From assembly GCA_964415545.1 (NCBI GenBank), contig CAYQAU010000003.1:82427-146426 (forward strand): a DNA stretch of 64,000 nt, read 5' to 3'. A model generated the notes under the pieces. The model was not told the DNA's origin and did not search any database. It worked only from the letters and a program-made list of their open reading frames with translations. Source of the DNA: an uncultured Elusimicrobium sp. (GTDB lineage: Bacteria > Elusimicrobiota > Elusimicrobia > Elusimicrobiales > Elusimicrobiaceae). Position numbers and translations under genes: made by a program. This document shows, in pieces, positions 27,637 to 64,000 of this stretch. Position 1 is the stretch's first letter. Each line of letters begins with the position of its first letter.

Positions 27637-27752
27637 AAAAAAATACATCCTCTGCCTAATTTTACGCGCCCGCCGTGGTGTCAATACAAAAAATCTAAAT
27701 TATCCCCCCCAATTGGCATATTTAAATTTTGCAGAATTTCAGGAGGCCCCCT

Positions 27753-29069: not shown

Positions 29070-29898
29070 TACGCTTGAATTTTTTGGCCAATCTGTTTTG
29101 CAGCACGGTAAAGAGAGCGACCGCGTTTACCTGATGAAGCTTGATAAAAAAGACTTCCCCGCAGTTTTGGGATATATTAATGAACTTGCGCAGCGGGAAG
29201 GGTACTCTAAAATTATCGCAAAGGTGCACGGCGCGCTGGAGGCGGAGTTTATAAAAGACGGATACCGCCGTGAAGCTTTTATAAAAAGCTTTTATTGCGG
29301 GCGGGAGGATTGTTGCCTTATGGCCAAATATCCCTTTGAAGGCAGAGCTCTGACTCCACCTGTGCCAAACGCGAGGGAAACCGCTGCTTTTTATAAAACA
29401 TTTACTGCCGCTGCGCCGCCAAAAGAGATTGCGCCCGCTTTTAATATAAGGGCTTTGGCGCAGGCGGATATTCCTGTAATTACAGGGATTTATAAGAAGG
29501 TTTTTGACACATACCCCTTCCCCGTTTTTGAGGGTGGGTATATCGCCAAAACCATGAGGGAGGATGTAGACTACTTTGGTATTTTTGACGGCGGTATTTT
29601 GGCGGCAATCTGCTCGGCGGAGATGGACCGCCAAAATCAAAATGCGGAGATGACGGACTTTGCCGCCCTGCCGCAGTACAGGGGTAAAAGTTTGTCTTAT
29701 TTCCTGCTAAAAGCGGCGGAGGAATCCGCAGCGGCAAAAGGTATAAAAACTTTTTATACCATAGCAAGGCATAAGAATACGGGCGTAAATATTGTATTTG
29801 CAAAAAGCGGCTATAAATTTGGCGGGCTGCTGGGTAATAATACAAACATTTGCGGCGGGATAGAGAGTATGAATGTGTGGTTTAAAAAATTGTATTAA
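29062..29898 (+). CDS. ablB: GNAT acetyltransferase, putative beta-lysine N6-acetyltransferase
   Basis: 278 aa with an 8-nt overlap with kamA. The C-terminal GNAT core reads [20 protein letters not shown]...AKSGYKFGG. The kamA-adjacent arrangement matches the ablAB pair. Confidence 0.7.
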
Positions 29899-33479: not shown

Positions 33480-33480
33480 A

Positions 33481-37040: not shown

Positions 37041-37308
37041 TTTAAGTCTCCGTAAATCTTATATAAAATAATTATATCACTTATAAAAATATTCGTATAT
37101 TAAGAGTTTTCCTTTATAAATATTTTTGCCAATCTAACCATTCTCTTTTATATCAATGAAAGCCATAGTACAATTAAATTGTTAAATCTATGCTTTTGGC
37201 GGTGTATCGTAAGTGATACGGATGATATTATTTAACTATAAATAGGATATTATATATAATCAAGTATAGCACTATTTGATTATCTAATAATTAACCGGGA
37301 TAAAATTG

Positions 37309-40300: not shown

Positions 40301-41274
40301 ATCAAAAATTTTATGACGATAAATTGCGTACTTTCCCTTCAACTTCGCCAAATACTCCTGGTCTTGGCGTTAATTTTATGTATTGTAAAGACGGTGTTTG
40401 GGAAGGCGGCAAAGGAAACAATGCTGAAGCGGAAAATGTTGCCCATATAATTTTCCAGCATATTAAAGACCAACCGAATATAACACTTGGTGTTATTGCC
40501 TTTGGAAAAGCACAAGAAAATGCGATATTAGAAGCTGTTAATAAGCTGCGGGATATGCATCCCGAGTTGGAAAACTTCTTTGATGAAGGAAAATCCGAAC
40601 CATTCTTTATTAAAAATCTAGAAAATGTTCAAGGCGATGAGCGCGATAGAATTATTTTATCCTGCGGGTATGGCAAAGATGCTAAGGGGACATTTGCGAT
40701 GCGTTTTGGTCCTCTAGCTTCATCTGGAGGCGAAAGACGACTAAATGTAGCAATTTCGCGTGCAAAATGTCAGATGACTGTTGTCTCCTCTTTTAGATCA
40801 ATGGATATTAGAGATGTGGAAGGCAATCAAAACCGTAAAATCTTACGTGATTTTCTTTATTATGCTGAAAATGGTACTTTTTTACTTACAGATAAAAGTG
40901 AAAACCAAAATTCTGCCCGATATACACCATATTTTGATTCTAAATTTGAGGAGGATGTTTACACTTTCCTTATCCAAAAAGGATACAAATTGCGTACTCA
41001 GCATGGTGTATCTAAATATAAAATTGATATGGTTGTTTTACATCCTAAAATCAAGGATGTCTTTGTGCTGGCGATTGAATGTGATGGCGCTGCGTATCAC
41101 AGCAGTCGCACAGCACGAGATAGGGATATATTGCGTCAAAATATTCTAGAGAAAATGGGCTGGAAATTTTATAGAATCTGGTCCACAAGCTGGATCTACG
41201 AAAATAAGTCTGAAAAAGAGAAGTTGTTGCAAGCAGTAGATCGCGCCATCAAAGACAATATGGCATCATGCTAG
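37309..41274 (+). CDS. DUF4011-type SF1 (Upf1/DNA2-like) helicase fused to a C-terminal Vsr-fold (DUF559-like) PD-(D/E)xK nuclease
   Basis: N-terminal LLDMSKRNRLLWYRP (DUF4011-like). Walker A GPPGTGKSQT and Walker B VIFDEASQ. Helicase C-terminal blocks: LNWHYRSKDEKLIAFSNQKFY, VQGDERDRIILS and GERRLNVAISRAKCQMTVV. The C-terminal nuclease-like region reads KYKIDMVVLH...VLAIECDGAAYHSSRTARDRDILRQNILEKMGWKFYRIW. Confidence 0.8.
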   Translation: MEDSLIKKLEERIKNWKQSLLDMSKRNRLLWYRPYQAGTLILSESIFDNACNPKELIKRLITDSATISFSAELPVLPDKPDEQDPDFESSKIAYEAKKKLFDKIKTRNKILENIRRTINRENDEKGLHIGYIAVGFLKWYEREDVNTEIKSPLIMVPILLEQESRISPYCIRLNPDEEITINPVIQKKFEADFNLILGNSEYDYANIDDIFVKINNVISGQKNWAVLENITLDTFNFQNLAIWNDLDKNIDLLKDSTFGKLLVGESPRNLGLVYSDNIDLKAIKSQDNLCVLETDSSQVEAMCRARNGESFVIQGPPGTGKSQTIANIIAQQLYLGKKVLFVSEKQAALDVVYHKLCQADLADFCLIMHNSKQKKSDIRAQIQHSLDLAQNKQKVSENALKVYCQVDTYLKKLNLYDESLHERHQGGKSPYLIMAEIAKLNDLPLISFHMPDGFNWNSDYTDLFDAVQNYGLSFVTDTHHFKNDCWQDYILDFSSSTQREVKDILCRETLESLTRAAKKIEERYDDQIILTYIKILEKIPFKQANTDELKAKRKNINNIIKTIALLSEDIANNNLKRREEIDKNKTHVSEKAQQIDSLKLEVKEHFKDSFFTLPDCEDIYKILTHKFNSFFSRFRGEYRQIIHKLDQFTTFKLKYADYVINLNKLIDIQKDYADIEAINSNFKQNISQIDAENEKLNKKIEYANENLIKEKTFVLQKVKESLSAIEKLFSNLDFDRMQEYQNYVSARNIMLCTYNLNSFIEKIEDLGQKFKADEILNLFKKRIFLLYLEQTEFGKQYYNYSREQHDKDIDTFREYDKQSFEVTQAKIRCDLISRLPNISGFLNDKSNDEIKMLKRELKKKSRLMPTRELIKKLPSTIPLLKPCMMMSPLTVSSYFSTNQDWKFDIVIFDEASQIKPEYAIPAIVRGRQLVVAGDAKQMPPSRFFDVSSYEDDEGYEDSNEIYLSDLESILDEMSSILPNISLNWHYRSKDEKLIAFSNQKFYDDKLRTFPSTSPNTPGLGVNFMYCKDGVWEGGKGNNAEAENVAHIIFQHIKDQPNITLGVIAFGKAQENAILEAVNKLRDMHPELENFFDEGKSEPFFIKNLENVQGDERDRIILSCGYGKDAKGTFAMRFGPLASSGGERRLNVAISRAKCQMTVVSSFRSMDIRDVEGNQNRKILRDFLYYAENGTFLLTDKSENQNSARYTPYFDSKFEEDVYTFLIQKGYKLRTQHGVSKYKIDMVVLHPKIKDVFVLAIECDGAAYHSSRTARDRDILRQNILEKMGWKFYRIWSTSWIYENKSEKEKLLQAVDRAIKDNMASC

Positions 41275-44463: not shown

Positions 44464-44829
44464 TTAAATATATATAAAATTTTTTCCTTTCGGGAATATT
44501 CTTATATGAGTTTTCTTAAAATAGTCACTTGGGGAGCATCCTGGCGGTAGAAATGCTTTTTTGTATCTTCTTTTGCCTATTTTAAACCAAGTGCCCTCAA
44601 TTTTGAGATCAATACCTGAGATACTAAAAAGTGAATTTTTAAATTTCTTATATGCGGTTGCAATGTCTTCTTTTGATTTTATGAAGTCACCTGACCACTC
44701 ATCAAGTCTATCTAATTCAATAAGAATAGAATCAAAAAGTATATCAGAGGAACTATTGAAGTGTTCCCCTCTAAATAAAAACTTTGAAAAGCTAATTCTC
44801 TCCACTCTGTCGCCTCTTGTATTTTGCAT
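44464..44829 (-). CDS. hypothetical protein (121 aa from first ATG; the open frame continues upstream to about 45042 without a canonical start)
   Basis: ORF only. About 71 further sense codons lie upstream of the first ATG, so the gene is possibly 5'-truncated. Confidence 0.35.
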   Translation of the reverse strand: MQNTRGDRVERISFSKFLFRGEHFNSSSDILFDSILIELDRLDEWSGDFIKSKEDIATAYKKFKNSLFSISGIDLKIEGTWFKIGKRRYKKAFLPPGCSPSDYFKKTHIRIFPKGKNFIYI

Positions 44830-45168: not shown

Positions 45169-45495
45169 GTGTTTATAGATAAGGCAGCTTATCTTATTAA
45201 AGATGGTGTGTCTGAGCTAATAATCTATATAAGTATAGCGGACTTTATTAAGTTTTTGCATAGCTATAGTGTTGATGATTATTATAATGAAAAATTAATT
45301 TCTTGTGATAATATATGTATCAGTAAAGATAAAAATCAGATAATTATCAGGACGGAATTCGTTATAGATAATATGACAAAAAACAGATCTGTCCATGGCC
45401 CGCTTAAAAATGCTCTAACCATAAGGGAAATAAATGAGGGCTTAGCTCTGAGCTGGAAGTATATGAAAGTTTTGGCGCAGGGTAAAAAGATTTAG
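45169..45495 (+). CDS. hypothetical protein (108 aa, GTG start)
   Basis: ORF only, with no motif recognised. Confidence 0.25.
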   Translation: MFIDKAAYLIKDGVSELIIYISIADFIKFLHSYSVDDYYNEKLISCDNICISKDKNQIIIRTEFVIDNMTKNRSVHGPLKNALTIREINEGLALSWKYMKVLAQGKKI

Positions 45496-45685
45496 AAAAA
45501 GAAACAGGCTAAAACCATCGCACAATACAAAGATATATAAAGCTATCCTACCTATCTCCCAATATAGTCTATGATATCTTTGAAAATAAAAATCCTAAAA
45601 ACCTGCGTCTAAAAGAACTTCTCACAATAGCCTCTTACGAAAACTTTAAAGAGCAGGAAGCAGTTTGGGCTGCTAGAGAATAGGT

Positions 45686-50043: not shown

Positions 50044-51903
50044 ATGCATATTAGTCAAATAAAAATAGAGAACTTCAGAATATTTAAAAAATTAGAGCTA
50101 AAACTTAATAAAGGTTTAAATGTCTTTGTGGGGGAAAATAATTCAGGAAAGACTGCTATTTTAGATGCTATAAAATACGTTTTAGATACTAATTCTACAG
50201 AGTATTTGAATATCGATAGAGAAAACGATTTCCATGTAGATGCAAATGGGGGGATATCTAATACTTTTTCAATAAAATTAACTTTTTCTGAATTAAATAG
50301 AAGTAATGAAGCAACTTTTTTACAGTATTTAACTTATGAAGAAGTAGGGGATAAGCTTGAGCCTAAATTATATCTGACTTTAACGTGTAATAAAGAAGAT
50401 GAGGGGCGTAAAGGATATATTCGCAGGCATGTTAAAACAGGAACGGAAGGGGATGGAAAAGAATTAGAGGCTACTGTAAAAGAACTTTTAGAGGTAACAT
50501 ATTTAAAACCATTAAGGGATGCTGAGGTAGAGCTTAAAGCTGGAAGAGCCTCTCGTTTAGCTAAGATTTTAGAAGGATATATAGACCTTCCAAAAGAGAA
50601 ATTTGAGGATAACAACTTTGATTTATTTCAAAAAATAGATCAATTTCATGAGGAAATGGGGAAAAAGATTGACACAATAAAGGGTGAAGATCAAGCAATA
50701 TCTACTAAAATCAAAGAAGGATATTTGAATAATTTAGTGCTAGGTGGAGAAAAAGATATTAATTTGGGCCTTAAGACTAAAGATAATAAGACAAAATATC
50801 GTGATATATTGTCTAAATTAAATTTGGAATATAACGATAAGAGGGGAAAGCAAGGTCTTGGATATCAAAATATTTTATTTATGGCAGTTGAGATGCTGTT
50901 GTTAGAAGGAGAACTCTATAACTATGCTCCAATCATGCTAATAGAAGAACCAGAGGCGCATTTGCACCCCCAACTGCAAATAAAACTTCTTGATTTTATC
51001 TCAAAGCATGAAAAAGAAAATCTTCAGATATTTATGACCACGCATAGCCCTAATCTGGCATCAAAAGTTAATATTGAAAATTTATATTTGTGTTTAGCGC
51101 AGGGGATATATTCTTTAAGAGCAGAGGAGACAATGCTAGATAAAGAAGATTATGTTTTTTTAGAGAAATTCTTGGATGTCACAAAAGCAGATCTATTTTT
51201 TGCAAAAGGGCTTGTTTTGGTAGAGGGAGTTTCTGAGCAGTTATTATTTCCAAAAGTAGCTAAACTATTGTCATTAGATATATCTAAGAAAGGGATTTCT
51301 ATTGTCAATGTTGGTAGCACGGCATATGGGAGATTTGTAAAGATATTCAAAAGGCGAGATGGAGCCGATATTCCAATACCCATTGCTTATGTAACTGATT
51401 TGGATATAATTAACTATTTTCAAGAAGGGGATGTGAAGTCTTCCTTAGTAGAAGAGAAAAGAAACTCAAAGTTGAATTTAAATTCAAAATATCATCAAGG
51501 GTTTGTTTCCAAATACAGAACATTAGAAGTGGACTTAATTCATAAGAATAAAGAAAAAGTTTGTCAGTCTATGAGAAGATTTATAACTCCTCGAGAAGAG
51601 TATGAAAACGGAAGTGTAAAAAATCTTTTTGATTATATTAATGATAGTAAGCACAAATCTCATTTAGCGTACCATCTTATTAACTTGGATCTGCGTAAGG
51701 CTGCTGAAGTCCAATGTTTTTTAAATGGCAAATCTGATAAAAGTGAATTTGAAAATCTTGTTTTCTCTTTAGGCTTGTTGAATTCTCATTCTTGGACACC
51801 AGAGCAAAGGAGTATAGCAGAAAATATTCTTCTTTTGAGAATAGATGATATTCCAGAGTATATTAGCAATGCAATATCTTTTGTGGATAACAATATAGCA
51901 TGA
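50044..51903 (+). CDS. gajA: OLD-family ATPase-TOPRIM nuclease, Gabija GajA-like
   Basis: The N-terminal ISQIKIENFRIFKKLEL...VGENNSGKTAILDAI is an ABC-type Walker A. Walker B / D-loop: MLIEEPEAHLHPQ. TOPRIM-like LVLVEGVSEQLLFP and YVTDLD. It is followed by a UvrD-like gene with an ATGA overlap. Confidence 0.7.
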   Translation: MHISQIKIENFRIFKKLELKLNKGLNVFVGENNSGKTAILDAIKYVLDTNSTEYLNIDRENDFHVDANGGISNTFSIKLTFSELNRSNEATFLQYLTYEEVGDKLEPKLYLTLTCNKEDEGRKGYIRRHVKTGTEGDGKELEATVKELLEVTYLKPLRDAEVELKAGRASRLAKILEGYIDLPKEKFEDNNFDLFQKIDQFHEEMGKKIDTIKGEDQAISTKIKEGYLNNLVLGGEKDINLGLKTKDNKTKYRDILSKLNLEYNDKRGKQGLGYQNILFMAVEMLLLEGELYNYAPIMLIEEPEAHLHPQLQIKLLDFISKHEKENLQIFMTTHSPNLASKVNIENLYLCLAQGIYSLRAEETMLDKEDYVFLEKFLDVTKADLFFAKGLVLVEGVSEQLLFPKVAKLLSLDISKKGISIVNVGSTAYGRFVKIFKRRDGADIPIPIAYVTDLDIINYFQEGDVKSSLVEEKRNSKLNLNSKYHQGFVSKYRTLEVDLIHKNKEKVCQSMRRFITPREEYENGSVKNLFDYINDSKHKSHLAYHLINLDLRKAAEVQCFLNGKSDKSEFENLVFSLGLLNSHSWTPEQRSIAENILLLRIDDIPEYISNAISFVDNNIA

Positions 51904-53735
51904 CTACTTTGAATGAATTAATATTTATTACTGATAATGATATTGACTCCTTGCTGTCAGTATATAACGATAAATATCCCGAAGAATCCAAGGGTTTTTG
52001 TACATTAAGAAAATCAATTATAAAAAATTTGGATACTAAAGATTTTCACGCCGTTGCTGGCAGTGGAAAAACAACTTTATTAGCATTTAAAATAGCTCTA
52101 ATTCTTAATAAATGGCCGTATAAAAGCAGGGGTATTTGTATACTATCTCATACTAACGTTGCCAAAGATATCATAATCAAAGAATTGAAAAATATAAATC
52201 CACACTATTCTTTGGAAAAATTTCCCCATTTTATTGGAACAATACAACAATTCGTGGATTCATATTTGGCCATCCCATATATAGACAGTCTTGTTTCTAA
52301 AGTGAAATATATAGATAGTGAACAGTATTGGAATAGATTTAAAAACATGTTTGGTTTTTGGGAGTCTCCTCAAGTAATAACTAGATTTAGAACGCTTTTT
52401 GATTTTGTATCCTATCTTAAGGGAAATACTGCAAATGAATATTGTGCTCGTTTAAAGTTGGTTAATATTGATGCAAAAAGAAATGCAACAAGTTTTTTTA
52501 ATTCAAAAAAAACTCTTGTATCTAAAATTGAGACAACTCTATTATCTGAAGGGGTGTTTACATATGAAAATATGTTTGATTATGCTCATAAGTTTATAGA
52601 AAAACATCCCAGTATTATTGAAGTATTGCGACATAAATTTCCCTTGATAATAGTAGATGAAGCCCAGGATACTAATAAAAGACAACACTATATATTAGAA
52701 GAATGTTTTGCCAATTCAGATAATAATATTTTTCAACGAATTGGGGATCCGGATCAGGCTATATATGATTTTGATAAAGAGGATGATATAAGCGAAGAAA
52801 TGTTCTCTAGAGCGGATAATAATCAAAAAATCACCGAGAGTTATCGATTTTGTAAAAAAATTGCTGAAGAAACAAGCAGATATTCTCTTTCTTCAACAGA
52901 TGTTATTAGCAATATCGATCGTAATGAGATTGAGGAAATATCGTTTGATACCTCATCATCATCATCAGATGTTATAGAGAAATTTATAACTCTTTTATGT
53001 GAGAATCGGGACAAGTTACCTGAAAATCCTATTATTAAAATTATTGGTGCTCAGGGAGATAACCCTACAGATGGAGCGTTAGATATTCAATCATATATTC
53101 CAGCATTTAATAAAAAAATTAAAAAAAACAAATTTCGAACTTCCAATATCTTTCAAGCATTAGAATATTTACATAAAAATATAGTCGGCAATTTTGCAAA
53201 TAACTATGAACTGATTATTGATTGTATTGCACGATCTTCTACTATCGATACCAAAAGACTTTCTCGTATGGAATTTATAGCTTTTTTGAATAAAACCTCA
53301 CAGCTAGATATTCTAAATAAGATGATTTTTGCTTGGTTAAATCTTTATACTCCGATATCCAAAGCAAAAGTTGAAGAAGATTTATCTTTACTCTTGGGTA
53401 TAACTTTTAACTATGAGATACTTTGCGACTCAAAATACAAAGAAGAAGCTCCTAACGTATCATCATATATAAATATTAATGGAACACAGATTCCCATTGT
53501 AAATAATCTTTTTAAATATGATAATTTGACTTTTTATATTGATACTATACATGGAGTAAAAGGTGAAACTCATGATGCTACATTGGTTTTAGCTACAAAA
53601 GATGGAACGACCTCCACAGACATACAAACATTACGTGGTAAAAAAAAGAAAAACACGCATAAGCCTCAATGGAAAAAATTATATGTTGCCATGAGTCGCC
53701 CCAGACATATATTGGCAATAGCAGTTCCTAAATAG
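51900..53735 (+). CDS. gajB: UvrD-like SF1A helicase, Gabija GajB-like
   Basis: Walker A AVAGSGKTTLL and Walker B LIIVDEAQDTN. C-terminal blocks: DTIHGVKGETHDATLV and LYVAMSRPRHIL. Confidence 0.7.
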   Translation: MTTLNELIFITDNDIDSLLSVYNDKYPEESKGFCTLRKSIIKNLDTKDFHAVAGSGKTTLLAFKIALILNKWPYKSRGICILSHTNVAKDIIIKELKNINPHYSLEKFPHFIGTIQQFVDSYLAIPYIDSLVSKVKYIDSEQYWNRFKNMFGFWESPQVITRFRTLFDFVSYLKGNTANEYCARLKLVNIDAKRNATSFFNSKKTLVSKIETTLLSEGVFTYENMFDYAHKFIEKHPSIIEVLRHKFPLIIVDEAQDTNKRQHYILEECFANSDNNIFQRIGDPDQAIYDFDKEDDISEEMFSRADNNQKITESYRFCKKIAEETSRYSLSSTDVISNIDRNEIEEISFDTSSSSSDVIEKFITLLCENRDKLPENPIIKIIGAQGDNPTDGALDIQSYIPAFNKKIKKNKFRTSNIFQALEYLHKNIVGNFANNYELIIDCIARSSTIDTKRLSRMEFIAFLNKTSQLDILNKMIFAWLNLYTPISKAKVEEDLSLLLGITFNYEILCDSKYKEEAPNVSSYININGTQIPIVNNLFKYDNLTFYIDTIHGVKGETHDATLVLATKDGTTSTDIQTLRGKKKKNTHKPQWKKLYVAMSRPRHILAIAVPK

Positions 53736-53737
53736 TG

Positions 53738-54673
53738 TCAGACAGATCTTAAAGCCTTGTTGAGTAAAGTTTTCACTTCTTCCTTTAGTTTTTTTGGTTG
53801 CAAAATACTTATATATGGTACCCATTGCATGATTATTTGGATGGCTTCGCGAGGGTTGGATACATAGCTTTCTATAGTTAAAGATCCATCTTTCCATTCT
53901 TTGGTTATCTTTTGAAGTGGAAAAATTTCCTTTACCTTAAAGTAGTGGGCTATTTCGGGTAATACTTTAACCACTACTTTTATATCTTTTTTCTCGTCAA
54001 ATCAGATGTTTGGGCTTTGATCCAATAATTTGCATATGTCTTTAGTCATTTTAAAAGTTTTATTGGTTGCGGCGGCTTCTAAAATATTATCCAAACGAAA
54101 TTTTCTCATTTTACTGCCAATACAGTTTGTTCTTAGCCCTAATAAATACCAAAAACCATCATAATTTATAATCTTTAAAGGGCGAAGTTGATAGGATAAT
54201 TTCTTAGTAGGGGCATGGGTTAAAGTCATGTTAATCCAGGTATTTGTTTCTATTCCTCGTTCTAAAACTTTTGTTACTGCGGTTTCCTCATATTTAAGGC
54301 CCTTTGGCATTTTTATGTAAAAGGGGGAATCGGCATTCGTATTAAATATCTTGTTTTTAAGGCTTTGGAAGGAGCTATCAAAGCGCGCGCCCAATGGCTT
54401 AACAATATCGGACATTAGCACAAGCATAGACGCTTCCTCATCAGAAAGCTTCACTTTTTTTAGGGAAAATCCATCATAAAATCTTAACTGCCCAGGTTTT
54501 TCGTTAAAGAGGGGGAACCCGGCATCCTCTATAGTCCTAATATCGCGCTGTATTGTGCGGACGGAGACATCTAGCTCCCTTGCTACATCGGCAACTATCA
54601 AGCTGCCGTCAGATAGTATATTTAGCAGGCGCACTATTCTTGTTAATCGTTTAAAATCGTGTTCTTTTTTCAT
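53738..54673 (-). pseudogene. WYL-domain transcriptional regulator (HTH-WYL-WCX, YafY/BrxR/CapW-like) interrupted by one in-frame TGA
   Basis: The N-terminal HTH reads RLTRIVRLLNIL...VADVARELDVSVRTIQRDIRTIEDAGFPL. The central WYL-like block reads YQLRPLKIINYDGFWYLLG. The 223-aa ORF stops at TGA 54002-54004. The same frame continues into the 78-aa ORF (53738-53974), which carries the WCX-like end (WVPYISILQPKKLKEEV). Confidence 0.7.
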
Positions 54674-54696
54674 ATTTACATCATAACAAATAATGC

Positions 54697-54712
54697 CGAC
54701 AAATTTATGTCG
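54697..54712. promoter_or_regulatory. palindromic operator candidate CGACA-N6-TGTCG (site 1)
   Basis: CGACAaatttaTGTCG, located 24-39 nt upstream of the WYL regulator ATG (54673, minus strand). The half-sites are identical to those of site 2. Confidence 0.45.
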
Positions 54713-54763
54713 CTATTATTTAATGGGTTTTATTACCAAAGTAACACCCTTAAAAGTGTTGCG

Positions 54764-54891
54764 TCATATCTGAAAAAGAGATATGAGGATTCGAAACCAA
54801 GGTGATAGCCAATTTTCTGACTCGTAAGAGTCAGGAGGCGGCATATCATTTAGAGCGTTTCGAATCCCTCAAAAATGATTGCCGCTTTTTT
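54764..54891 (+). ncRNA. structured RNA / transcription-attenuator-like element
   Basis: A small hairpin spans 54764-54786. A long imperfect hairpin spans 54785-54870. Within it, P1 has 13 bp with one bulge, P2 has 10 bp including two G-U pairs, and P3 is CTGACTC-gtaa-GAGTCAG. An alternative stem pairs GCGGCATATCATT (54838-50) with AATGATTGCCGC (54874-85) and is followed by T6 (54886-91). It shares nt 54840-50 with P2. Confidence 0.4.
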
Positions 54892-54927
54892 ATTGGCTAT
54901 TTACACATAAATAATAATTTGTTTGTG

Positions 54928-54943
54928 CGACAAGAGGTTGTCG
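54928..54943. promoter_or_regulatory. palindromic operator candidate CGACA-N6-TGTCG (site 2)
   Basis: CGACAagaggtTGTCG, located 60-75 nt upstream of the lipoprotein ATG (55003). Confidence 0.45.
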
Positions 54944-55002
54944 TTATCAAATATTAGAATAAATTAGGCTATATGCTATAAATATAAACTTAGGAGGAAG
55001 GA

Positions 55003-55998
55003 ATGAAGAAATATATACCATTACTACTTACGCTGGTTCTTTGTGGATGCTCCGTTATTAATACTCAACTTTTGGGGAAGTGCCCATGCAATAATGCCAG
55101 AAACTATATGGATAATGTATCAACATTGCAAAGCAATATCGAGAAATATATAGGTGTTTTGCCACCTATATGCGAGGATATAAAAAGGCAAATTAATACC
55201 GATACCCCAGATATAAATGCCCTTTTGAACTACTTAAAAGTAGATAAAACAACGGGCACCAAGGCCGCTTTGGCTAAATATGAACAGTTACGCGCCTGCG
55301 CTAATGTATACAATAGAATTGTTGAAAGCCAGAAGGATATTGAAGCGTCTAAAAAAGATTATTATGAGAAGCAACAAGATCTTCTTTGTCCGACAGGCTG
55401 CTTCATTGCAATGAACATTGATAAAACTAAAAACGTATTCTTTGATTTTAAGGAGTTATATGATGCCTATTTGGTAAAAATTAATTCTCCGCTTGCAGTT
55501 AAAAATCCTAAATTGGAAATTGATAGGTTTTCCACCTTGGCAACAATGCTTTTTAACTATTATTATGATAAGGAGGCTGCTATCTTTAAATCTAAAACCG
55601 GCGGTTTAAATTTATGCGCGGGAAGTGTGTCGGATTTTATGCTTACCACCACTAAAAAATCGCCTATTATATATAGCAATAGTAAATACACGTATTTTTT
55701 ATCGGTTCTATCAACAGGCTATAATGGTGTTTTGGTGTCAGATTCATCAAATGCGCCCTATAATATGTTTGATAAGATGATATTTGTGTATACAAAGGAT
55801 AAATACGCAACAAGTAGTCCGCTTAAATCCGGCTATTATAGTTACCGGGGCATATATGATTACACTACCGTTATGGGGTATCTAAACTCAGTACATTCCT
55901 TTAAGGCGGTTGATATTAATAAACTCCTGGGAAGTTTACTTTTTTATAAGTATAAATATGAAATATCGCAAGAATGGTTTGGCCGAGGGTGGCGATAG
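55003..55998 (+). CDS. lipoprotein of unknown function (331 aa)
   Basis: AGGAGG SD and a lipobox LVLCGCS. The mature part is Cys- and Tyr-rich with no motif recognised. Confidence 0.65.
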   Translation: MKKYIPLLLTLVLCGCSVINTQLLGKCPCNNARNYMDNVSTLQSNIEKYIGVLPPICEDIKRQINTDTPDINALLNYLKVDKTTGTKAALAKYEQLRACANVYNRIVESQKDIEASKKDYYEKQQDLLCPTGCFIAMNIDKTKNVFFDFKELYDAYLVKINSPLAVKNPKLEIDRFSTLATMLFNYYYDKEAAIFKSKTGGLNLCAGSVSDFMLTTTKKSPIIYSNSKYTYFLSVLSTGYNGVLVSDSSNAPYNMFDKMIFVYTKDKYATSSPLKSGYYSYRGIYDYTTVMGYLNSVHSFKAVDINKLLGSLLFYKYKYEISQEWFGRGWR

Positions 55999-56006
55999 TT
56001 TTAACG

Positions 56007-56038
56007 CTTGACTTACTGCTTTATGTAAGCGTAAATAT
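56007..56038 (+). repeat. promoter-like island motif, copy A (diverged)
   Basis: CTTGACTTactgctttatgTAAGCGTAAATAT. It shares CTTGACTTACTG with copy D. It lies 9 nt after the lipoprotein stop and 37 nt before the ATG at 56075. Confidence 0.5.
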
Positions 56039-56074
56039 CTTTAGTTGGTAAATTAGATGAAAGGAGGATAAGTT

Positions 56075-56638
56075 ATGGCAATGCTGAGTGAGGAAGTTGT
56101 TGAGGAATGGTTAAATAGGCGGGGTTTTTTTACTATAAGAGGGATAAAAGTTGGTCTTAATGAAATTGATCTTCTTGCTATTAAAAAAACGGATACAGGA
56201 GTGGATGCCTGGCATGTTGAGGTCCAAGTTTCTATAAATCCAGTAGCTTTTATAAGCAAAACCAGAAGAGCAGATAGGGCCTTTGGGATTGGGGCCAATA
56301 GTGCAAGGGCTAGGACTAGAGAGGTTCTTGCTGAGTGTGTGGAAGAGTTTGTTAATAAAAAGTTTAACGGAGATGATATAAAAAAAGTCAGGAACAAACT
56401 CTGGTCAGGCGATTGGAAATATTTTATGGCTTTAGGCAATGTCAAAGATGATAGGGAACCGGTCCTGATAAAGGCCGCGGGAGTAGGTGTGTTTTTTATT
56501 AAAGATATAATAAAAGCTTTGGGAGAAAACAAAAATAATGATTTCGTTATTACAAAAGCAACAGGTGGGGATTTAGTGGATTTAGTTTTGATTAAAGATA
56601 AACTTGAGGATACATCAGAACTATGCTTAAACAAATAA
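56075..56638 (+). CDS. YraN-like PD-(D/E)xK nuclease-fold protein (187 aa)
   Basis: AGGAGG SD. The N-terminal EEVVEEWLNRRGFFTIRG...NEIDLLAIKK...WHVEVQVS matches the E...EID...EVx pattern of the YraN/UPF0102-type endonuclease fold. Confidence 0.5.
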   Translation: MAMLSEEVVEEWLNRRGFFTIRGIKVGLNEIDLLAIKKTDTGVDAWHVEVQVSINPVAFISKTRRADRAFGIGANSARARTREVLAECVEEFVNKKFNGDDIKKVRNKLWSGDWKYFMALGNVKDDREPVLIKAAGVGVFFIKDIIKALGENKNNDFVITKATGGDLVDLVLIKDKLEDTSELCLNK

Positions 56639-56710
56639 GGAAAGGCAAAAATAAATATTTTTGATGCGCTTGGGTGGCAGCTTACGGCTATAGAAATATT
56701 TTTGCTTTGC

Positions 56711-57902
56711 ATGGTTTGTGCCAGCCATATCTGCGCCGAGATGTTTGATGAGACTAAAGCAAAATCCACCCTAATATTGACGATACTTAAAGGTAATATA
56801 GGCACGCTTGAGGAAGTCAATATACTGCTAAATAAAAAGCAGTCTAAATTATTTAAGAAAAATATTCTTCTAGACAAAACCAGCTCCATACATGCATCCC
56901 CGGGTTTGCTTGGCATGTTCTCATCGGATAAAGATGATTATAAAAGCAAAATTATTGAATACAGCCCCTCAAGCTTATATGAGGAGCTAAGCAAATATGT
57001 CCGTGGGCACGAAGGCGCCAAACAGCAATTTTGTATAGGTGTTTTTGAGCATCTTGTGCGCTGCCACGCCATGAAGCGCAAAAAAATAAAAATAAAAAAG
57101 AACAATATTTTAATAGCCGGGCCAACAGGCAAAGGAAAAACTTATATGTGCCAATGCATGTCAAGGATACTCAGCATGCCAATGCTTACTTTTGATGCCA
57201 CGCAATATAGCGAAACGGGCTATATCGGCATGAGCGCAAGTGATATTATTTCAGATACCTACCAGGCAGTCGGCGGCGAGGGTGGTAAGCTAAAACCCTG
57301 CATTATTTTTATAGATGGAATTGATAAGCTAGCCTCTCGCCCAGGTCGCTATGGTGAGACGAAGGGGGTTGTTGTTCAACGCGAACTTTTAAAAATAATA
57401 GAAGGCGAGGGTTGTGTTCTAAACGATTCTATGAGTCGCGACAGAGCATATTTTGATGTCTCCAATGTTTTATTTGTTGTGGCAGGCGCATTTAGCGGGA
57501 TAGAGAAGCAAAAAATCCACTAGCAGCGTAAATATCGGTTTTATAGCGAAGGAGGAGGCTGCGCCGCTGCCACCACTAAACGCGCAGGATTTGGCTATTT
57601 ACGGCCTTATCCCAGAGTTTGTTGGTCGCTTTGGGTATTTGATAGAGTTTGAGGCGTTATCCGAGGCAGATCTTAAAGATATATTACTTGACTCAGAAGA
57701 AAGTATTATAAGTAACTATAAACAGTTGTTTGAAATTTGCGGGGACTCCTTTGCATTGCCAGAAGATCAAATTGAAAAACTGGTGGAGGCTGCCTATAGA
57801 AGCGGCACTGGTGCGCGTGGCCTAAACAATGCGGTAAACAGCCTTATAAAAGAGAGGATGTTTAAAATGTCTTTCAAGCCGAGGCAAACGGCGAAACGGT
57901 AA
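56711..57902 (+). pseudogene. ClpX-paralogue AAA+ unfoldase, broken by a +1 A insertion in an A6 tract
   Basis: Part 1 (to 57523): GAKQQ..., Walker A GPTGKGKT, pore loop ETGYIGMS, Walker B IIFIDGIDK and VVAGAF. Part 2 uses the other frame, open from 57504 (track ORF 57591-57902): NIGFIA (IGF-like), LIPEFVGRF and TGARGL. Removing one A from 57510-57515 joins the two parts. The start codon is uncertain (ATG 56711, or later Met codons). Confidence 0.75.
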
Positions 57903-57931
57903 ATAAAAGATTAAAAACAAATGGAGAAACT

Positions 57932-58771
57932 ATGAGACATAAAGGCGAACTATCTTTAGCTAAGGCATATATGCCTGAATATATTGAATCATTAAAAATT
58001 AGATCCAAAATCCTGCGTGCGACCGGTGTCGCAATAGGATATGGCGATATAGCCTTGCCACCCGGCAGTTTAACTATTTTGGGCGGGCGCACAGGGCACG
58101 GTAAAACAAGTTTGGCTATTAATATTATTAAAAAAGTTTGTATTGAGGACAATCAGCCGGCGGCTTATTTTTCATTGCAATTTGGCTATAATGAGGTTTT
58201 AAATAAACTTGTGAACTGTATGCCCGGGGAAGATATCGACGATAAGCTGCCTAATTTGCTGGAGCAAGAAACGGTAAAGAGTTCTATCGAAAAAATTGAA
58301 GCTGCGCCGTTTTATTTGGATACCTCTTCTGTGTTATCGGCTGAAAGTATAGTAAATAAAGTTTCTGGGATAGAAAAAGTCTCGCTTATCATTGTTGATC
58401 ATATGGAACTACTACAGCACAGGCAAAATATTAAAGCGTTTGAGGGTATCGCCAATACACTTAAACAACTTGCCCAAAAGCTAGATGTAGCTGTATTGAT
58501 GTTTTGTAATTTACCTATGGTTTATGTGGATAAAATAGAGGAGTGCCGCCCTTGTCTAAATGATTTTAAGAATTTTGGCGACTTGGAAAGGTATGCAGAT
58601 ATAATGGGTTTTATTTATCGCCCAAAATTTTCCAGAGAAGATTCCAAAAGCCTGCATGTGGAGGGATTACTTTCCATCTGCAAAAACAAATTTACCCGTC
58701 CCGTTGATATTGATTTGCAGTTTGATGCAAAACGTATGTTATTTCAAGAGATAAAACCCAATCAAAAATAG
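57932..58771 (+). CDS. DnaB C-terminal (RecA-fold) domain paralogue lacking the DnaB N-terminal domain
   Basis: GGAG SD. Walker A GGRTGHGKTS. Other blocks, with the DnaB equivalent in brackets: FSLQF (FSLEM), IIVDHMELL (DYLQL) and RPCLNDFKNFGDLERYADIMGFIYR (RPxxSDLRESGxIEQDAD). Confidence 0.65.
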   Translation: MRHKGELSLAKAYMPEYIESLKIRSKILRATGVAIGYGDIALPPGSLTILGGRTGHGKTSLAINIIKKVCIEDNQPAAYFSLQFGYNEVLNKLVNCMPGEDIDDKLPNLLEQETVKSSIEKIEAAPFYLDTSSVLSAESIVNKVSGIEKVSLIIVDHMELLQHRQNIKAFEGIANTLKQLAQKLDVAVLMFCNLPMVYVDKIEECRPCLNDFKNFGDLERYADIMGFIYRPKFSREDSKSLHVEGLLSICKNKFTRPVDIDLQFDAKRMLFQEIKPNQK

Positions 58772-58772
58772 A

Positions 58773-58808
58773 CTTGACTTGCCTCCCTATACTAAGCGGT
58801 AATATATA
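58773..58808 (+). repeat. promoter-like island motif, copy B
   Basis: CTTGACTTgcctccctatacTAAGCGGTAATATATA. It begins 2 nt after the DnaB-like stop and lies 30 nt before the ATG at 58838. Confidence 0.55.
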
Positions 58809-58837
58809 CGCGCACATATTTGGCTCAAGGAGGCAGT

Positions 58838-59201
58838 ATGAAAAAGAAACAACCTAAACTAAGAGTATTAAAAAGTATACCAAAAGGCTTTCCCAAGGAT
58901 ATTCGGGCATCTCCTGTTGAAAAGACCGTCGCATGCAAGGCTATAAAGGTTACAAAAAAGCCTGCAGAGGGTGTTTTTAGGGCAAATAAAGGCACTCAAC
59001 GCGATTCGCGCTTGCCTGCGCAGGGAAACAATTATAACCCGCAAATATAAAGGCGAAGAGTTACAAATAAAAGTGGTTGAAAACGGCTTTGAATACAAGG
59101 GGGAGATTTTTAAGAGTATCTCAGCTCGGGCTGTTCACATAGTAGGCGCATCCATCAGCGGTTATGTATTTTTCAAACTGACAGGTGGTAAAAATGACTA
59201 A
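58838..59201 (+). pseudogene. DUF2924-like protein broken by a +1 A insertion in an A5 tract
   Basis: AAGGAGG SD plus ATG 58838 (MKKKQPKLRVLK). After the A5 run (58870-58874) the other frame reads VYQKAFPRIFGH...RKYKGEELQIKVVENGFEYKGEIFKSISARAVHIVGASISGYVFFKL. This parallels the intact DUF2924 protein at 62077 (VYKGKEYKAIVLEDGTFKLHDKIYKTLSAVANEISGKHLSGPDFFNL). Confidence 0.55.
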
Positions 59202-61851: not shown

Positions 61852-61852
61852 A

Positions 61853-61890
61853 CTTGACTTCTCTCCCGACAGTAAGCGGTAATGTGTATA
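61853..61890 (+). repeat. promoter-like island motif, copy C
   Basis: CTTGACTTctctcccgacagTAAGCGGTAATGTGTATA. The final A is the A of the ATG at 61890. Confidence 0.55.
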
Positions 61891-62087
61891 TGAAAAGAAT
61901 TCCACCAATAGAAAAAAGGTTTAAAAAGGGGTTATCTGGTAATCCCTATGGCAGGCCGCGCATACTTGAGCGCGATATTTTTGAAATTATGATTGAACTT
62001 TTAAAGCTGTTTTTAAGATATAAAAATAAAGATCGTGATGTTGCCAACAAACTATTAAAAATAAAGGAGGCTTTAAATGAGAAATAA
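61890..62087 (+). CDS. DUF5681-like small protein
   Basis: MKRIPPIEKRFKKGLSGNPYGRP matches the F-KG-SGNP-GRP signature of DUF5681. It overlaps the next gene by 11 nt. Confidence 0.5.
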   Translation: MKRIPPIEKRFKKGLSGNPYGRPRILERDIFEIMIELLKLFLRYKNKDRDVANKLLKIKEALNEK

Positions 62088-62514
62088 ATGTTATCTACCT
62101 TCAAGCATGGAGGAGTTGAAAGAGTTGTCACAAGAGCAACTGGAGTTTTATTGGAAGATATTCTACCTAATACCATTTAGAAATAAAAAGGCGGCACTAC
62201 GCCCACTATGGTATTCAATCCAATGCGAACGTTTTAATATTAAGTTAGAGGATAAACATATCAGACGTCTTACCAGATACGCTAAGAATCCCGAGAAATA
62301 TATAGAAAAAGCCAATAAAAATAAATATGCGCTAACAGCTGGCACGGAACTACTTAAGGTATACAAGGGCAAAGAATATAAGGCTATAGTTTTGGAAGAT
62401 GGTACTTTTAAGCTTCATGACAAAATATATAAAACCTTATCTGCTGTAGCTAATGAGATATCAGGTAAACATCTTAGCGGCCCCGACTTCTTTAATCTTA
62501 ATGGGAAAGTTTAA
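62077..62514 (+). CDS. DUF2924 family protein
   Basis: AAGGAGG SD. The C-terminal LKVYKGKEYKAIVLEDGTFKLHDKIYKTLSAVANEISGKHLSGPDFFNL fits the DUF2924 pattern. This family is usually found next to large serine recombinases. Confidence 0.6.
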   Translation: MRNKCYLPSSMEELKELSQEQLEFYWKIFYLIPFRNKKAALRPLWYSIQCERFNIKLEDKHIRRLTRYAKNPEKYIEKANKNKYALTAGTELLKVYKGKEYKAIVLEDGTFKLHDKIYKTLSAVANEISGKHLSGPDFFNLNGKV

Positions 62515-63428
62515 TTTGCAGCAGGATGCCATCCGCTTCCTTGTTGTATCAATTCATTAGTCCATGCTAGTAATAGGCATAATCCCTTGTTTTTAACACC
62601 CCACTTCCGTCTTCCACCACTTGTGCCATATCCCGTAGCAAATCCTTCCATATTTTCCAAGTAATAATCCATAAAACCTTTGTATAGGGGTGTAGAATTT
62701 GTAAACCATGATAGATCCATATCATCACCTATGCGTTGCTTGAGAAAATTGAATATTGTGCCTTTTTCCAAATGATCCACTATTTCATCTGGTGTAATAT
62801 TATCATATTTACCTGTATCAATTACGTGATTGATTTCAAGTATAAGCAGCGTGAGGGCATGCAGATTGAACAAGGGGAATTCTCTTATTCCTTCAATGGT
62901 TTTTGAAAGTTGTTCGGTCAAAATAACATATTTTAATGCATATTCAAAATCTTTTACCTCTCCTGGGTAATGCACTATTTGATTTCTGATAATTTGTAGT
63001 TGATCCAAGAGACGTCTTGTTTTTGGTGGTAATCCACCAGATAACAGGAGGATATTTAGCGCGTTACCTTGTTTAAGGTCTTTTGATTCGGGGTGTTCTT
63101 TGGGAAATATTTTTTGTAATTTTTTAAATGTAATCACTTCCAGATTTTGCCATGAAGCAACTATGGCCTTGGCGGGATCCTCACAAACTTTAGTTTTTAA
63201 ACTCTCTATTTCTTTACCTGAAAGGGTAGGCATACCTTCCCTCTTGCCTTCTTCTTCTGCTTTGAGAATTTCGTTTTTAAAATGTATTTCCCAATCCTTA
63301 TATTTGGCTGATGCAATAGATGAAATTAGGGACGAAAGCTGCTTCTTAAATAGAAATAAAAAAGATAAAAGCACTCCAGGCCACACAAGCGACCCTGATA
63401 ATGCGGCGATAAAAGTTTTCCAATCCAT
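62511..63428 (-). CDS. membrane-anchored HEPN-like protein (DUF4145-like R-x4-H motif)
   Basis: The start is set at ATG 63428, preceded by AGGAG. TM helix FIAALSGSLVWPGVLLSFLFLF. The central LLDQLQIIRNQIVHY contains an RNxxxH motif. Confidence 0.5.
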   Translation of the reverse strand: MDWKTFIAALSGSLVWPGVLLSFLFLFKKQLSSLISSIASAKYKDWEIHFKNEILKAEEEGKREGMPTLSGKEIESLKTKVCEDPAKAIVASWQNLEVITFKKLQKIFPKEHPESKDLKQGNALNILLLSGGLPPKTRRLLDQLQIIRNQIVHYPGEVKDFEYALKYVILTEQLSKTIEGIREFPLFNLHALTLLILEINHVIDTGKYDNITPDEIVDHLEKGTIFNFLKQRIGDDMDLSWFTNSTPLYKGFMDYYLENMEGFATGYGTSGGRRKWGVKNKGLCLLLAWTNELIQQGSGWHPAAN

Positions 63429-63445
63429 ATCTTCTCCTAAAAACA

Positions 63446-63482
63446 CTTGACTTACTGTGCTTACTAAGCGGTAATGTGTATA
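63446..63482 (+). repeat. promoter-like island motif, copy D
   Basis: CTTGACTTactgtgcttacTAAGCGGTAATGTGTATA. It lies 29 nt before the recombinase ATG. The 18-mer TAAGCGGTAATGTGTATA is identical to copy C. Confidence 0.55.
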
Positions 63483-63510
63483 GGGTTATTATAATAAAAA
63501 AGGTATCAAT

Positions 63511-64000
63511 ATGCAGAAGATAAATTGTGCGATATATGTAAGAAAGTCTACAGAGCATGGGTTGGAGCTAGAGTTTAATTCGCTCCATAATCAAGAGGAG
63601 GCCTGCAAGGCTTATGTGGCTAGCCAAACCTTTAATGGATGGGGGTATTATAAAACTTATTCAGATGGTGGAATAAGCGGTGGGACGATGGCACGACCAG
63701 GGCTTAAGAAAATGCTTGAAGACATAAGAGACGGAAATGTGAACATGGTTGTGGTTTATAAGGTGGATAGGCTTTCGCGTTCTATAGTGGACTTCCATAA
63801 AATGATTCAAGAATTGGAGAAATATCAATGTAATTTTGTATCGGTAACCCAAGCATTTGATACAAGTAATTCTATGGGGAAACTGACTCTTAATATGCTT
63901 TTATCCTTTGCACAGTTTGAGAGGGAGGTGGGAAGTGAGCGTGTGCGTGATAAAATTGCTGCCACAAAGGCCAAAGGCTTGTGGGTTGGCGGATCACCTC
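63511..64000 (+). CDS. large serine recombinase, N-terminal resolvase domain (partial, runs off window)
   Basis: Own translation: MQKINCAIYVRKSTEHGLE...SGGTMARPGLKKMLEDIRDGNVNMVVVYKVDRLSRS...FVSVTQAFDTSNSMGKLTLNMLLSFAQFEREVGSERVRDKI. This contains the catalytic YxRxS, DRLSR and E-R motifs. The ORF is not in the track because no stop codon lies within the window. Confidence 0.85.
   Translation, partial: MQKINCAIYVRKSTEHGLELEFNSLHNQEEACKAYVASQTFNGWGYYKTYSDGGISGGTMARPGLKKMLEDIRDGNVNMVVVYKVDRLSRSIVDFHKMIQELEKYQCNFVSVTQAFDTSNSMGKLTLNMLLSFAQFEREVGSERVRDKIAATKAKGLWVGGSP

Follow-up and report, generated by a model that had tools for sequence, protein, structure and literature searches.

We analysed a block of five genes (positions 53738-58771) in a 64,000-nucleotide stretch of contig CAYQAU010000003.1, from an uncultured Elusimicrobium sp.; this whole stretch is called the window below. 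With a probability of roughly 55%, we read the block as the dead copy of a conserved, undescribed WYL regulon, the core of which consists of an HTH-WYL-WCX regulator, a ClpX-like unfoldase and a DnaB-like protein. The open reading frame (ORF) map and the domain scans agreed with a preliminary description of this DNA on the five genes, their positions and their families: a regulator pseudogene on the minus strand (53738..54673; Pfam HTH_11, WYL and WCX) and, all on the plus strand, a predicted lipoprotein gene with an intact ORF (55003..55998), an intact gene for a small nuclease of 187 residues with a PD-(D/E)xK fold (56075..56638; AlphaFold2 model and Foldseek), a pseudogene for a ClpX-like AAA+ protein without a zinc finger (56639..57902, of which 56711-57902 had been described; NCBIfam ClpX, 1.7e-64, below the cut-off) and an intact ORF for a protein made of the DnaB C-terminal domain only (57932..58771; PF03796, 1e-31). 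This combination had been thought to match no named system. Indeed, no equivalent was present among the PADLOC models or the literature search results: PADLOC 2.0 gave only weak, partial AAA or P-loop matches (DolB 4.9e-06, IetA 1.9e-05, mad8 7.7e-05), and the literature searches retrieved nothing in which a ClpX-like or DnaB-like gene is paired with a WYL regulator.

Association of the WYL regulator with ClpX-like and DnaB-like genes

Close homologues of the window ClpX-like protein are rare: among 5.8 billion clusters only P0122 and P0123 were found, and P0122 (480 residues, 65% identity) is the closest relative. Family loci were collected by scanning metagenome contigs with the pore-loop motif D-A-x-Q-[YF]-[ST]-E-[ST]-G-Y-[IVM]-G, which gave 33 loci; the motif loci, the protein-fetched loci and locus L011 together resulted in 26 family loci, whose ClpX-like proteins are mostly 430-630 residues long. 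At rough frequencies, a homologue of the WYL regulator was found in 11 of these 26 loci and a gene for the DnaB_C domain alone in five, compared in each case with none of 120 control loci around canonical or phage ClpX, the control loci being on average twice as long as the family loci. All five DnaB_C-only genes (L003, L004, L142, L156 and L011) lie in loci that also hold the regulator and the ClpX-like gene, and these five loci have very different G+C contents; synteny of the three genes, envisaged in the preliminary description, is thus seen outside the window. The HTH-WYL-WCX regulator gene lies directly beside the ClpX-like gene, either divergent or co-directional, in L004, L005/L160, L130, L141, L144, L145 and L152, and near it in L003, L142, L156 and L011. 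Recurrent neighbours of the ClpX-like gene also include an IetA-like AAA gene (7 loci) and a metallophosphoesterase gene (6 loci). On contigs of 25-26% G+C (L004, L142, L147, L155, L157 and L158) the ClpX-like gene always adjoins the metallophosphoesterase gene, in varying orientation, and genes for PAD_porph (agmatine-deiminase-like), RhuM-Fic and two further proteins are often nearby.

L003 is a relative in which the whole setting can be compared with the window. Its block proteins are 65% (regulator, over 308 residues), 51% (lipoprotein), 45% (ClpX-like) and 36% (DnaB-like) identical to those of the window, and its regulator orthologue is intact. Gene order is the same around the serine recombinase gene of the two islands (79% identity between the recombinases, 75% and 55% between the DUF2924 proteins and 58% between the DUF5681 proteins), whereas the order of the block genes differs. 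L003, whose assembly is interrupted by a gap behind the lipoprotein gene, also carries a UvrD/GajB-like helicase gene and a type I restriction-modification system. UvrD-type helicases may have a recurrent link to the module: in L003 the GajB-like UvrD helicase gene (1-937) is directly followed by a box of the kind described below and the DnaB-like gene (1015-1886), in the window the GajB gene abuts the regulator gene, and in L004 a gene for a large UvrD-like helicase lies 5' of the DnaB-like gene.

In the window regulator, Pfam detected HTH_11 (2.8e-07) and WYL (2.9e-06) on 54673..54002 and WCX (1.9e-10) on 53974..53738; the two halves share one frame, and a TGA at 54002-54004 parts HTH and WYL from WCX. 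This architecture is that of the BrxR/CapW repressors, to which the gene had been assigned, but a close sequence relationship was not borne out: a phmmer search of the Protein Data Bank (PDB) gave weak matches (E ~4e-3) labelled 'WYL domain-containing protein' and 'DeoR-family regulator', none of them BrxR or CapW. As in the BrxR/CapW systems, the regulator gene stands in a defence island, beside or divergent from its presumed targets, and inverted repeats are present at its own and the target promoters; unlike in those systems, the targets would be ClpX-like and DnaB-CTD-like (C-terminal domain) paralogues and no known defence system, and a stop codon cuts the window copy short. Recoding of TGA (genetic codes 4 or 25) was considered for the regulator and rejected, since the window contains many long ORFs under translation table 11, including one of 4350 codons, and the orthologue has a Trp codon at the aligned position.

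The inverted repeats came to light in the regulator-lipoprotein intergenic regions of the window and L003, which align at two CGACA-N6-TGTCG palindromes. In the window, box 1 (CGACAAATTTATGTCG, 54697..54712) lies 24 bp 5' of the regulator start codon, a position kept in L003, and box 2 (CGACAAGAGGTTGTCG, 54928..54943) lies 60 bp 5' of the lipoprotein gene; these are the 2 sites of the 64 kb, where 0.02 would be expected. L003 contains 4 such boxes (0.01 expected), 25 to 100 bp 5' of the regulator gene, a Zn-ribbon/PDDEXK_5/lipoprotein operon, the ClpX-like gene and the DnaB-like gene, and L002 contains 2, which precede the PDDEXK_5 nuclease and ClpX-like genes. A relaxed box, GACA-N6-TGTC, precedes the ClpX-like gene in L004, L142, L155, L157, L134, L130, L156 and L011. 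It also stands before the metallophosphoesterase gene of L142 and L155, before a gene named c7 of L004 and L155, and before the DnaB-like gene of L142 and L011; in L156 it precedes an operon to which the DnaB-like gene belongs. Its distance to the ClpX-like, metallophosphoesterase, c7 or DnaB-like gene is 25-126 bp in L004, L142, L155, L157, L134 and L011, and it is also close in L130, L152 and L156. Before the regulator, ClpX-like, DnaB-like and nuclease genes of intact loci, the distance is 25-110 bp. Overall, 34 relaxed boxes were counted in 200 kb of family loci and 18 in 2.03 Mb of controls, a 19-fold enrichment (Poisson P ~2e-31). Because BrxR is a repressor that binds inverted repeats, both at its own promoter and at those downstream (PMC9122601), we infer by analogy that the boxes are putative operators of the WYL regulator, the ClpX-like and DnaB-like genes being its conserved targets.

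These results bear on the trivial explanation that five unrelated cargo genes came to lie side by side in a mosaic island. The family of the window nuclease is found solitary in other islands, the order of the block genes differs between the window and L003, and the nuclease/ClpX-like/DnaB-like unit of the window has no operator box, all of which would fit a chance juxtaposition. It would leave unexplained both the co-occurrence in 5-11 of the 26 family loci against none of the 120 controls and the putative operator that stands 5' of each partner gene in the intact loci; as far as the regulator and the ClpX-like and DnaB-like genes are concerned it is already disfavoured, and we hold it to be highly improbable as an account of the block.

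In L011, an Elusimicrobia metagenome-assembled genome contig (CAIPTO010000070.1), boxes precede DnaB_C-like, IetA-like AAA, WYL, ClpX-like and FtsA-like genes between 2441 and 13212, and a gene for the DnaA ATPase domain only comes after the IetA-like AAA gene on its strand. This locus has the look of a regulon whose members are shadow paralogues of proteins for replication, division and proteolysis. Such a gene set would also be expected of a captured cellular DNA-damage or stress regulon, made of spare replication, division and proteolysis paralogues with no specific link to phages. PafBC and DriD, regulators of RecA-independent DNA-damage responses, sense single-stranded DNA. They resemble the present regulators in being WYL sensors that act on dispersed promoters through a shared box, and one family locus has a PafB/PafC-like pair; a WYL pair of this type (HTH_PafC), divergent from the ClpX-like gene, was recorded in L005, L006 and L160, two of which are the same contig. 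Moreover, the solved structures closest in sequence to the window regulator are those of generic WYL/DeoR-type proteins and not BrxR. PafBC and DriD differ in their targets, however, and the clade described here is patchy and island-borne: with two close homologues of the window protein it is rare, as fits accessory rather than core stress genes, and the window, L003 and L004 copies stand among Gabija or UvrD-like helicase, McrBC and restriction-modification genes. A stress regulon of this kind is, in our judgement, distinctly unlikely.

Predicted properties of the ClpX-like and DnaB-like proteins

The window ClpX-like protein scored 218 bits against a cut-off of 359 for NF003745 and 189 against 371 for TIGR00382, and a neighbour-joining tree places its clade outside canonical ClpX; it had first been described as a ClpX paralogue. 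It shares with ClpX the AAA+ module with Walker A and B motifs, a GYVG-type pore-1 loop, an IGF loop and a C-terminal small domain. The window sequence keeps a GYIG pore-1 loop and the IGF loop; in the relatives the pore-1 loop reads GY[IVM]G in 25 of 26, Walker B reads IDE[IV]DK in all 26, Walker A is also kept, and an IGF-type tripeptide was present in nearly all ClpX-like sequences examined. What sets the subfamily apart from ClpX, apart from the scores below the equivalog cut-offs, is the absence of the C4 zinc finger (PF06689, CxxC pairs) from all 27 members, compared with its presence in 10 of 10 canonical ClpX sequences. A helical N-domain of 90-250 residues replaces the zinc-finger domain, and the pore-2/RKH region is shortened.

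This N-domain had no Pfam match, and a single-sequence search of 1.84 billion representatives retrieved the window's own product only. In an AlphaFold2 model of P0122 (mean predicted local distance difference test score, pLDDT, 72.5), the helical N-domain ends in a helix-helix-helix-strand-strand arrangement at about residues 94-150, which, with moderate confidence, is compatible with a winged helix. Given the IGF loop and the position of clpP directly 5' of the ClpX-like gene in L128 and L132, coupling to ClpP appears plausible, and the intact relatives look from their motifs like working unfoldases that dock ClpP and not like decoys. The suggestion of the preliminary description that both ATPase paralogues serve as sensors or decoys consequently loses ground for the ClpX-like protein, which keeps all catalytic and ClpP-docking motifs, whereas it suits the DnaB-like protein, which is degenerate as a mimic or adaptor would be.

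With the ClpX-like protein as query, tblastn against plasmid and phage collections found canonical ClpX only, at no more than 35% identity, and a locus search of viral contigs found nothing related. Alignment-driven scans of genome and viral contigs yielded canonical or phage ClpX at ~30-35% identity, which served as controls, and L011 as a true family member. To the AAA+/protease-based defence systems of PADLOC (ietAS, Dodola DolB, BREX BrxL), the resemblance lies in an AAA+ ATPase in a defence-island setting and in the IetA-like AAA neighbours of 7 loci; PADLOC matched the ClpX-like proteins only weakly and in part (E 1e-4 to 1e-7), and the module contains no partner protease gene.

The DnaB-like protein of the window matches PF03796 and has no N-terminal domain (PF00772), as had been described; DnaB chains of the PDB align with it over their C-terminal halves only. 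It scored 99 bits against a cut-off of 385 for TIGR00665. Together with stand-alone RecA-fold helicases such as IncQ RepA, DnaB shares with these proteins the RecA-like DnaB_C domain, Walker A and the Walker-B Asp. The window protein keeps Walker A and reads FSLQF where DnaB has FSLEM and CNLPM where DnaB has SQLNR. By reference to the DnaB and T7 gp4 structures, the Glu of FSLEM and the Gln of motif H3 (SQLNR) are taken to be catalytic. At the position of this Glu, the six DnaB-like proteins (window, L003, L004, L142, L156 and L011) have Q, Q, E, D, G and D, so that five of six have replaced it; none of the six retains the H3 Gln; and Walker A is kept in five of six, the Walker-A Lys being lost in L003. 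Since the catalytic Glu position and the H3 Gln are degenerate, these proteins are unlikely to be processive replicative helicases, and their sequences would better fit an ATP-binding scaffold, an adaptor or a poison subunit. A word-based homologue search with the DnaB-like protein returned two distant full-length DnaB proteins only. An IncQ RepA-like helicase was considered and rejected, on the basis of a poor alignment to a provisional RSF1010 RepA sequence and of the missing catalytic residues.

Decay and rearrangement of the window copy

Several lesions were found in the window. The TGA of the regulator, which stands before the WCX domain, aligns with a Trp of the L003 regulator (TGG to TGA). 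In the ClpX-like gene, an A6 run at 57509-57514 carries a +1 frameshift; this frameshift and the regulator stop had both been noticed in the preliminary description. In addition, Walker B reads IDGIDK, the Glu being replaced by Gly (GGA at 57317-57319). Homology between the ClpX-like frame and P0122 reaches back as far as the stop codon (TAA) of the nuclease gene, where it begins at about P0122 residue 56-62: the window gene is without ~60 N-terminal codons, a start codon, a Shine-Dalgarno sequence and an operator box of its own. Only the lipoprotein, nuclease and DnaB-like ORFs are intact. Judged from these changes, the window block is probably a mutated, dead copy of the module; its regulator and ClpX-like genes appear non-functional, and the block should not be annotated as a working system.

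The four plus-strand genes had been described as a run transcribed divergently from the regulator gene. Their positions and strands agree with this; a single simple operon does not, because a conserved promoter-like motif separates the lipoprotein gene from the nuclease gene, and the putative operators stand only before the regulator and lipoprotein genes. The motif is a ~35-bp element, TTGACTT-N13-TAAGCGGTAAT(G/A)TGTAT, which stands before most transcription units of this island family, the recombinase gene included. The window has four copies, at 56003-56044 (plus strand, beginning TTGACTT-N13-TAAGCG), 58772-58808, 61852-61888 and 63442-63483 (motif positions 56008, 58774, 61854 and 63447); three are present in L002 (5943, 7068 and 8684) and four in L003 (971, 3732, 11896 and 20113). 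Its spacing does not fit a standard sigma-70 promoter, and a scan of the block for sigma-70 and terminator consensus sequences gave no more matches than expected from shuffled sequence. The motif may be an element-specific promoter, a binding site of the DUF2924/RAMA protein or a recombination hotspot for cassette shuffling.

The unit formed by the nuclease gene, the ClpX-like remnant and the DnaB-like gene is preceded by this motif and has no operator box. The nuclease ORF abuts the truncated ClpX-like frame, both being in the same reading frame, and the motif and ribosome-binding site 5' of the nuclease gene align best with the copy 5' of the Zn-ribbon/PDDEXK_5 genes of L003, which suggests that the window nuclease fills the "nuclease slot" by non-orthologous replacement; hhalign found no homology between the window nuclease family and the L003 PDDEXK_5 protein. 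The nuclease had no PADLOC match and no Pfam or NCBIfam match at E<=0.01. Its AlphaFold2 model (pLDDT 87) matched PD-(D/E)xK proteins of the PDB at Foldseek probabilities of 0.99-1.0, the top matches being SfsA, AF1548, Cdn1, Upx, NucS and MspJI, and residues E6, D32, E49 and Q51 (E49-V-Q51) are invariant across the family. The model thus places the 56075-56638 product in the PD-(D/E)xK superfamily, as proposed; the narrower label 'YraN-like' was not supported, the YraN Pfam family giving no match and YraN structures not being among the Foldseek matches. The nuclease family has >1000 homologues at ~45% identity. Its members were solitary in three unrelated contexts, among toxin-antitoxin, GmrSD or type I restriction genes, and none of these three had a ClpX-like or DnaB-like neighbour. 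The nuclease as a regular module partner, proposed at first, was not supported: its family is solitary elsewhere and shows no homology with the PDDEXK_5 nuclease that takes this slot in the relatives.

The lipoprotein (N-terminus MKKYIPLLLTLVLCGCS) has a signal peptide with an LCGC lipobox, kept in its L003 homologue, in agreement with the original assignment of the gene at 55003. It had no match in Pfam, NCBIfam, PADLOC or PHROG, a lipoprotein-based locus search of genome contigs found nothing related, and it is confined to the window/L003 sub-lineage. In the reading we prefer, the PD-(D/E)xK nuclease and the lipoprotein are lineage-specific additions to the module core.

The carrier island and possible roles of the module

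The block is carried by a phage-derived serine-recombinase island with defence cargo (Gabija, Vsr/Dcm). On its 5' side, overlapping genes at 50044-53735 encode a Gabija pair (PADLOC GajA 4.8e-159, GajB 5.8e-117); its 3' boundary, on the plus strand, is the second promoter-like motif followed by a frameshifted DUF2924 (RAMA-like) gene (58772..59201, the gene itself at 58820-59201). Beyond this gene come, in order, Vsr, HTH-Dcm, a 248-residue ORF, DUF5681, DUF2924 and the serine recombinase, so that the block does lie between Gabija and a restriction-modification module in a defence island, as first noted. The integration module (61852..64000, plus strand; Pfam DUF5681, DUF2924 and Resolvase) consists of a promoter-like motif, DUF5681, DUF2924, a 311-residue ORF on the minus strand, another motif and the large serine recombinase gene, which starts at 63511 and extends past the window end. 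DUF2924 partly matches the RAMA DNA-binding domain (PMC11342252), and the window DUF2924 gave a Pfam RAMA match of 4.6e-06.

At roughly 31 kb of the window, G+C drops from ~45% to ~33%, and the low-G+C stretch includes BrxC/D, TerB, helicase, DUF4011 helicase-nuclease and further defence-type genes. At its left edge, a minus-strand operon (31287-37040) forms a defence-type triad of a TerB_N/TerB/TerB_C protein, a BrxC/BrxD-family ATPase (PF10923, 5.5e-139) and a DEAD/Lhr-like helicase. The gene at 37306-41274 encodes a protein of 1322 residues with DUF4011, AAA_11/AAA_12 (Upf1-like helicase) and a C-terminal MTES_1575/DUF559 nuclease domain; 3' of it are an HTH_3 protein gene and a DUF5131 gene. 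A short minus-strand ORF (44464-44829) matches the ApeA N-terminal domain (5.9e-07) and is probably a fragment of an ApeA-type defence gene. The C-terminal piece of a second large serine recombinase (45169-45671; 52-66% identity to residues 378-553 of the L003 recombinase) suggests that two related islands accreted in tandem, the left one being eroded. Shortly before the G+C drop that marks the island edge are the genes (27729-29898) for lysine 2,3-aminomutase AblA (6.8e-222) and beta-lysine N-acetyltransferase AblB (3e-86), whose products make the osmolyte N-epsilon-acetyl-beta-lysine. In the higher-G+C, chromosomal part of the window, a single ORF of 4350 residues spans 13311-26363. The source organism also has TolC and HlyD genes of the Gram-negative type.

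In L002 and L003, the genes of P0122 and P0123 adjoin, on the same strand, genes for a ParB_N-methyltransferase, DUF5681 and a large terminase (phrog_38, 1e-106), and DUF2924 is beside them as well. DUF2924 is common to the window, L002 and L003, and DUF5681 and the serine recombinase are common to the window and L003: the window island is a reduced relative of a phage-derived serine-recombinase element and has lost the methyltransferase-terminase segment. DUF2924 beside a recombinase has been reported in Wolbachia WO-type prophage regions (PMC10299305), and the two share both the position of DUF2924 directly 5' of the serine recombinase gene and, in the relatives, ParB-methyltransferase and large terminase genes; they differ in that the fetched stretches of L002, L003 and the window have defence cargo instead of capsid, portal or tail genes.

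This context is what would be expected if the regulon were the life-cycle programme of the island itself, with the WYL protein as a master repressor comparable to prophage CI or satellite Stl and the ClpX-like, DnaB-like, nuclease, ParB-methyltransferase, DUF5681 and terminase genes serving induction, replication and packaging. The direct contact of the ClpX-like gene with the methyltransferase, DUF5681 and terminase genes, the shared DUF2924, DUF5681 and recombinase genes, the Wolbachia parallel, and the element-specific promoter-like motif before both boxed and unboxed units all speak in its favour. Set against it are the occurrence of the triad in L004, L142, L156 and L011 with no recombinase or terminase within the fetched flanks, the absence of a primase or initiator gene from the window block, and DnaB-like proteins devoid of the catalytic Glu and H3 Gln expected of a replicative helicase. 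A replication or maintenance module of the serine-recombinase element, which the preliminary description had offered as its alternative, thus gained from the context (a phage-derived island, DUF2924, and a terminase in L002 and L003) and was weakened on function by the lost helicase residues. As a whole, we regard the life-cycle programme as unlikely, though less so than the stress regulon.

Under the reading we prefer, that of a conserved WYL regulon of which the window holds a dead copy, defence, element induction and stress response are candidate roles of the intact module. By analogy with better-known systems, the HTH-WYL-WCX protein, a repressor of BrxR/CapW architecture, would bind (C)GACA-N6-TGTC(G) palindromes at its own gene, at the ClpX-like and DnaB-CTD-only genes and, in this sub-lineage, at the PD-(D/E)xK nuclease/lipoprotein operon. 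A ligand arising from phage infection or DNA damage might then bind the WYL domain and lift repression; the ClpX-like hexamer would dock host ClpP and unfold or degrade a dedicated target; the catalytically degenerate DnaB-like protein might act as a replisome adaptor, bait or poison subunit; and replication would come to a halt in the phage, the host or both. More specifically, and more tentatively, one may picture a rare but widespread inducible system in which WYL release of a ClpP-docking ClpX paralogue and a dead DnaB look-alike shuts down the replisome or another essential machine upon infection. Additional paralogues (DnaA-AAA, FtsA-like, IetA-like AAA) would in that system have been recruited to the same operator, and it would represent a new class of defence or abortive infection built from shadow copies of core machinery.

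Five observations weigh against a dead copy of a conserved regulon with a fixed core. First, the loci were picked by their pore-loop motif, many are on short contigs and the WYL and DnaB hidden Markov models were built from the family itself, which makes the frequencies given above rough. Second, L005, L141, L144 and L145 have a ClpX-like gene and a WYL neighbour and no GACA-N6-TGTC box. Third, the set of partners is highly diverse (IetA-like AAA, metallophosphoesterase, PAD_porph, DnaA-AAA-only, FtsA-like, PEP-utilising enzyme), and instead of a system of fixed composition the unit may for this reason be a general regulon. Fourth, the interleaving of the L002 and L003 genes with ParB-methyltransferase, DUF5681 and large terminase genes fits an element life-cycle as well as defence. 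Last, the frameshift and the stop codon could in principle be assembly errors, although homopolymer errors do not typically take the form of substitutions such as TGG to TGA and GAA to GGA.

WYL repressors are known to act as switches in defence islands, among them those of BREX and CBASS. Some half of these repressors adjoin genes of unknown role (PMC9122601), and one such WYL-linked unknown has now become concrete, in the form of a conserved box, a ClpX paralogue that carries a new substrate-recognition domain and is expected to dock ClpP, and a DnaB-domain protein without two of the conserved catalytic residues of the helicase. For this genome, the window copy would be a relic and not a working system. 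For the family, if the reading is true, be it as defence or as element control, regulated proteolysis would be tied directly to replication control during phage attack, and the intact relatives would provide a natural adaptor-swapped ClpX for study.

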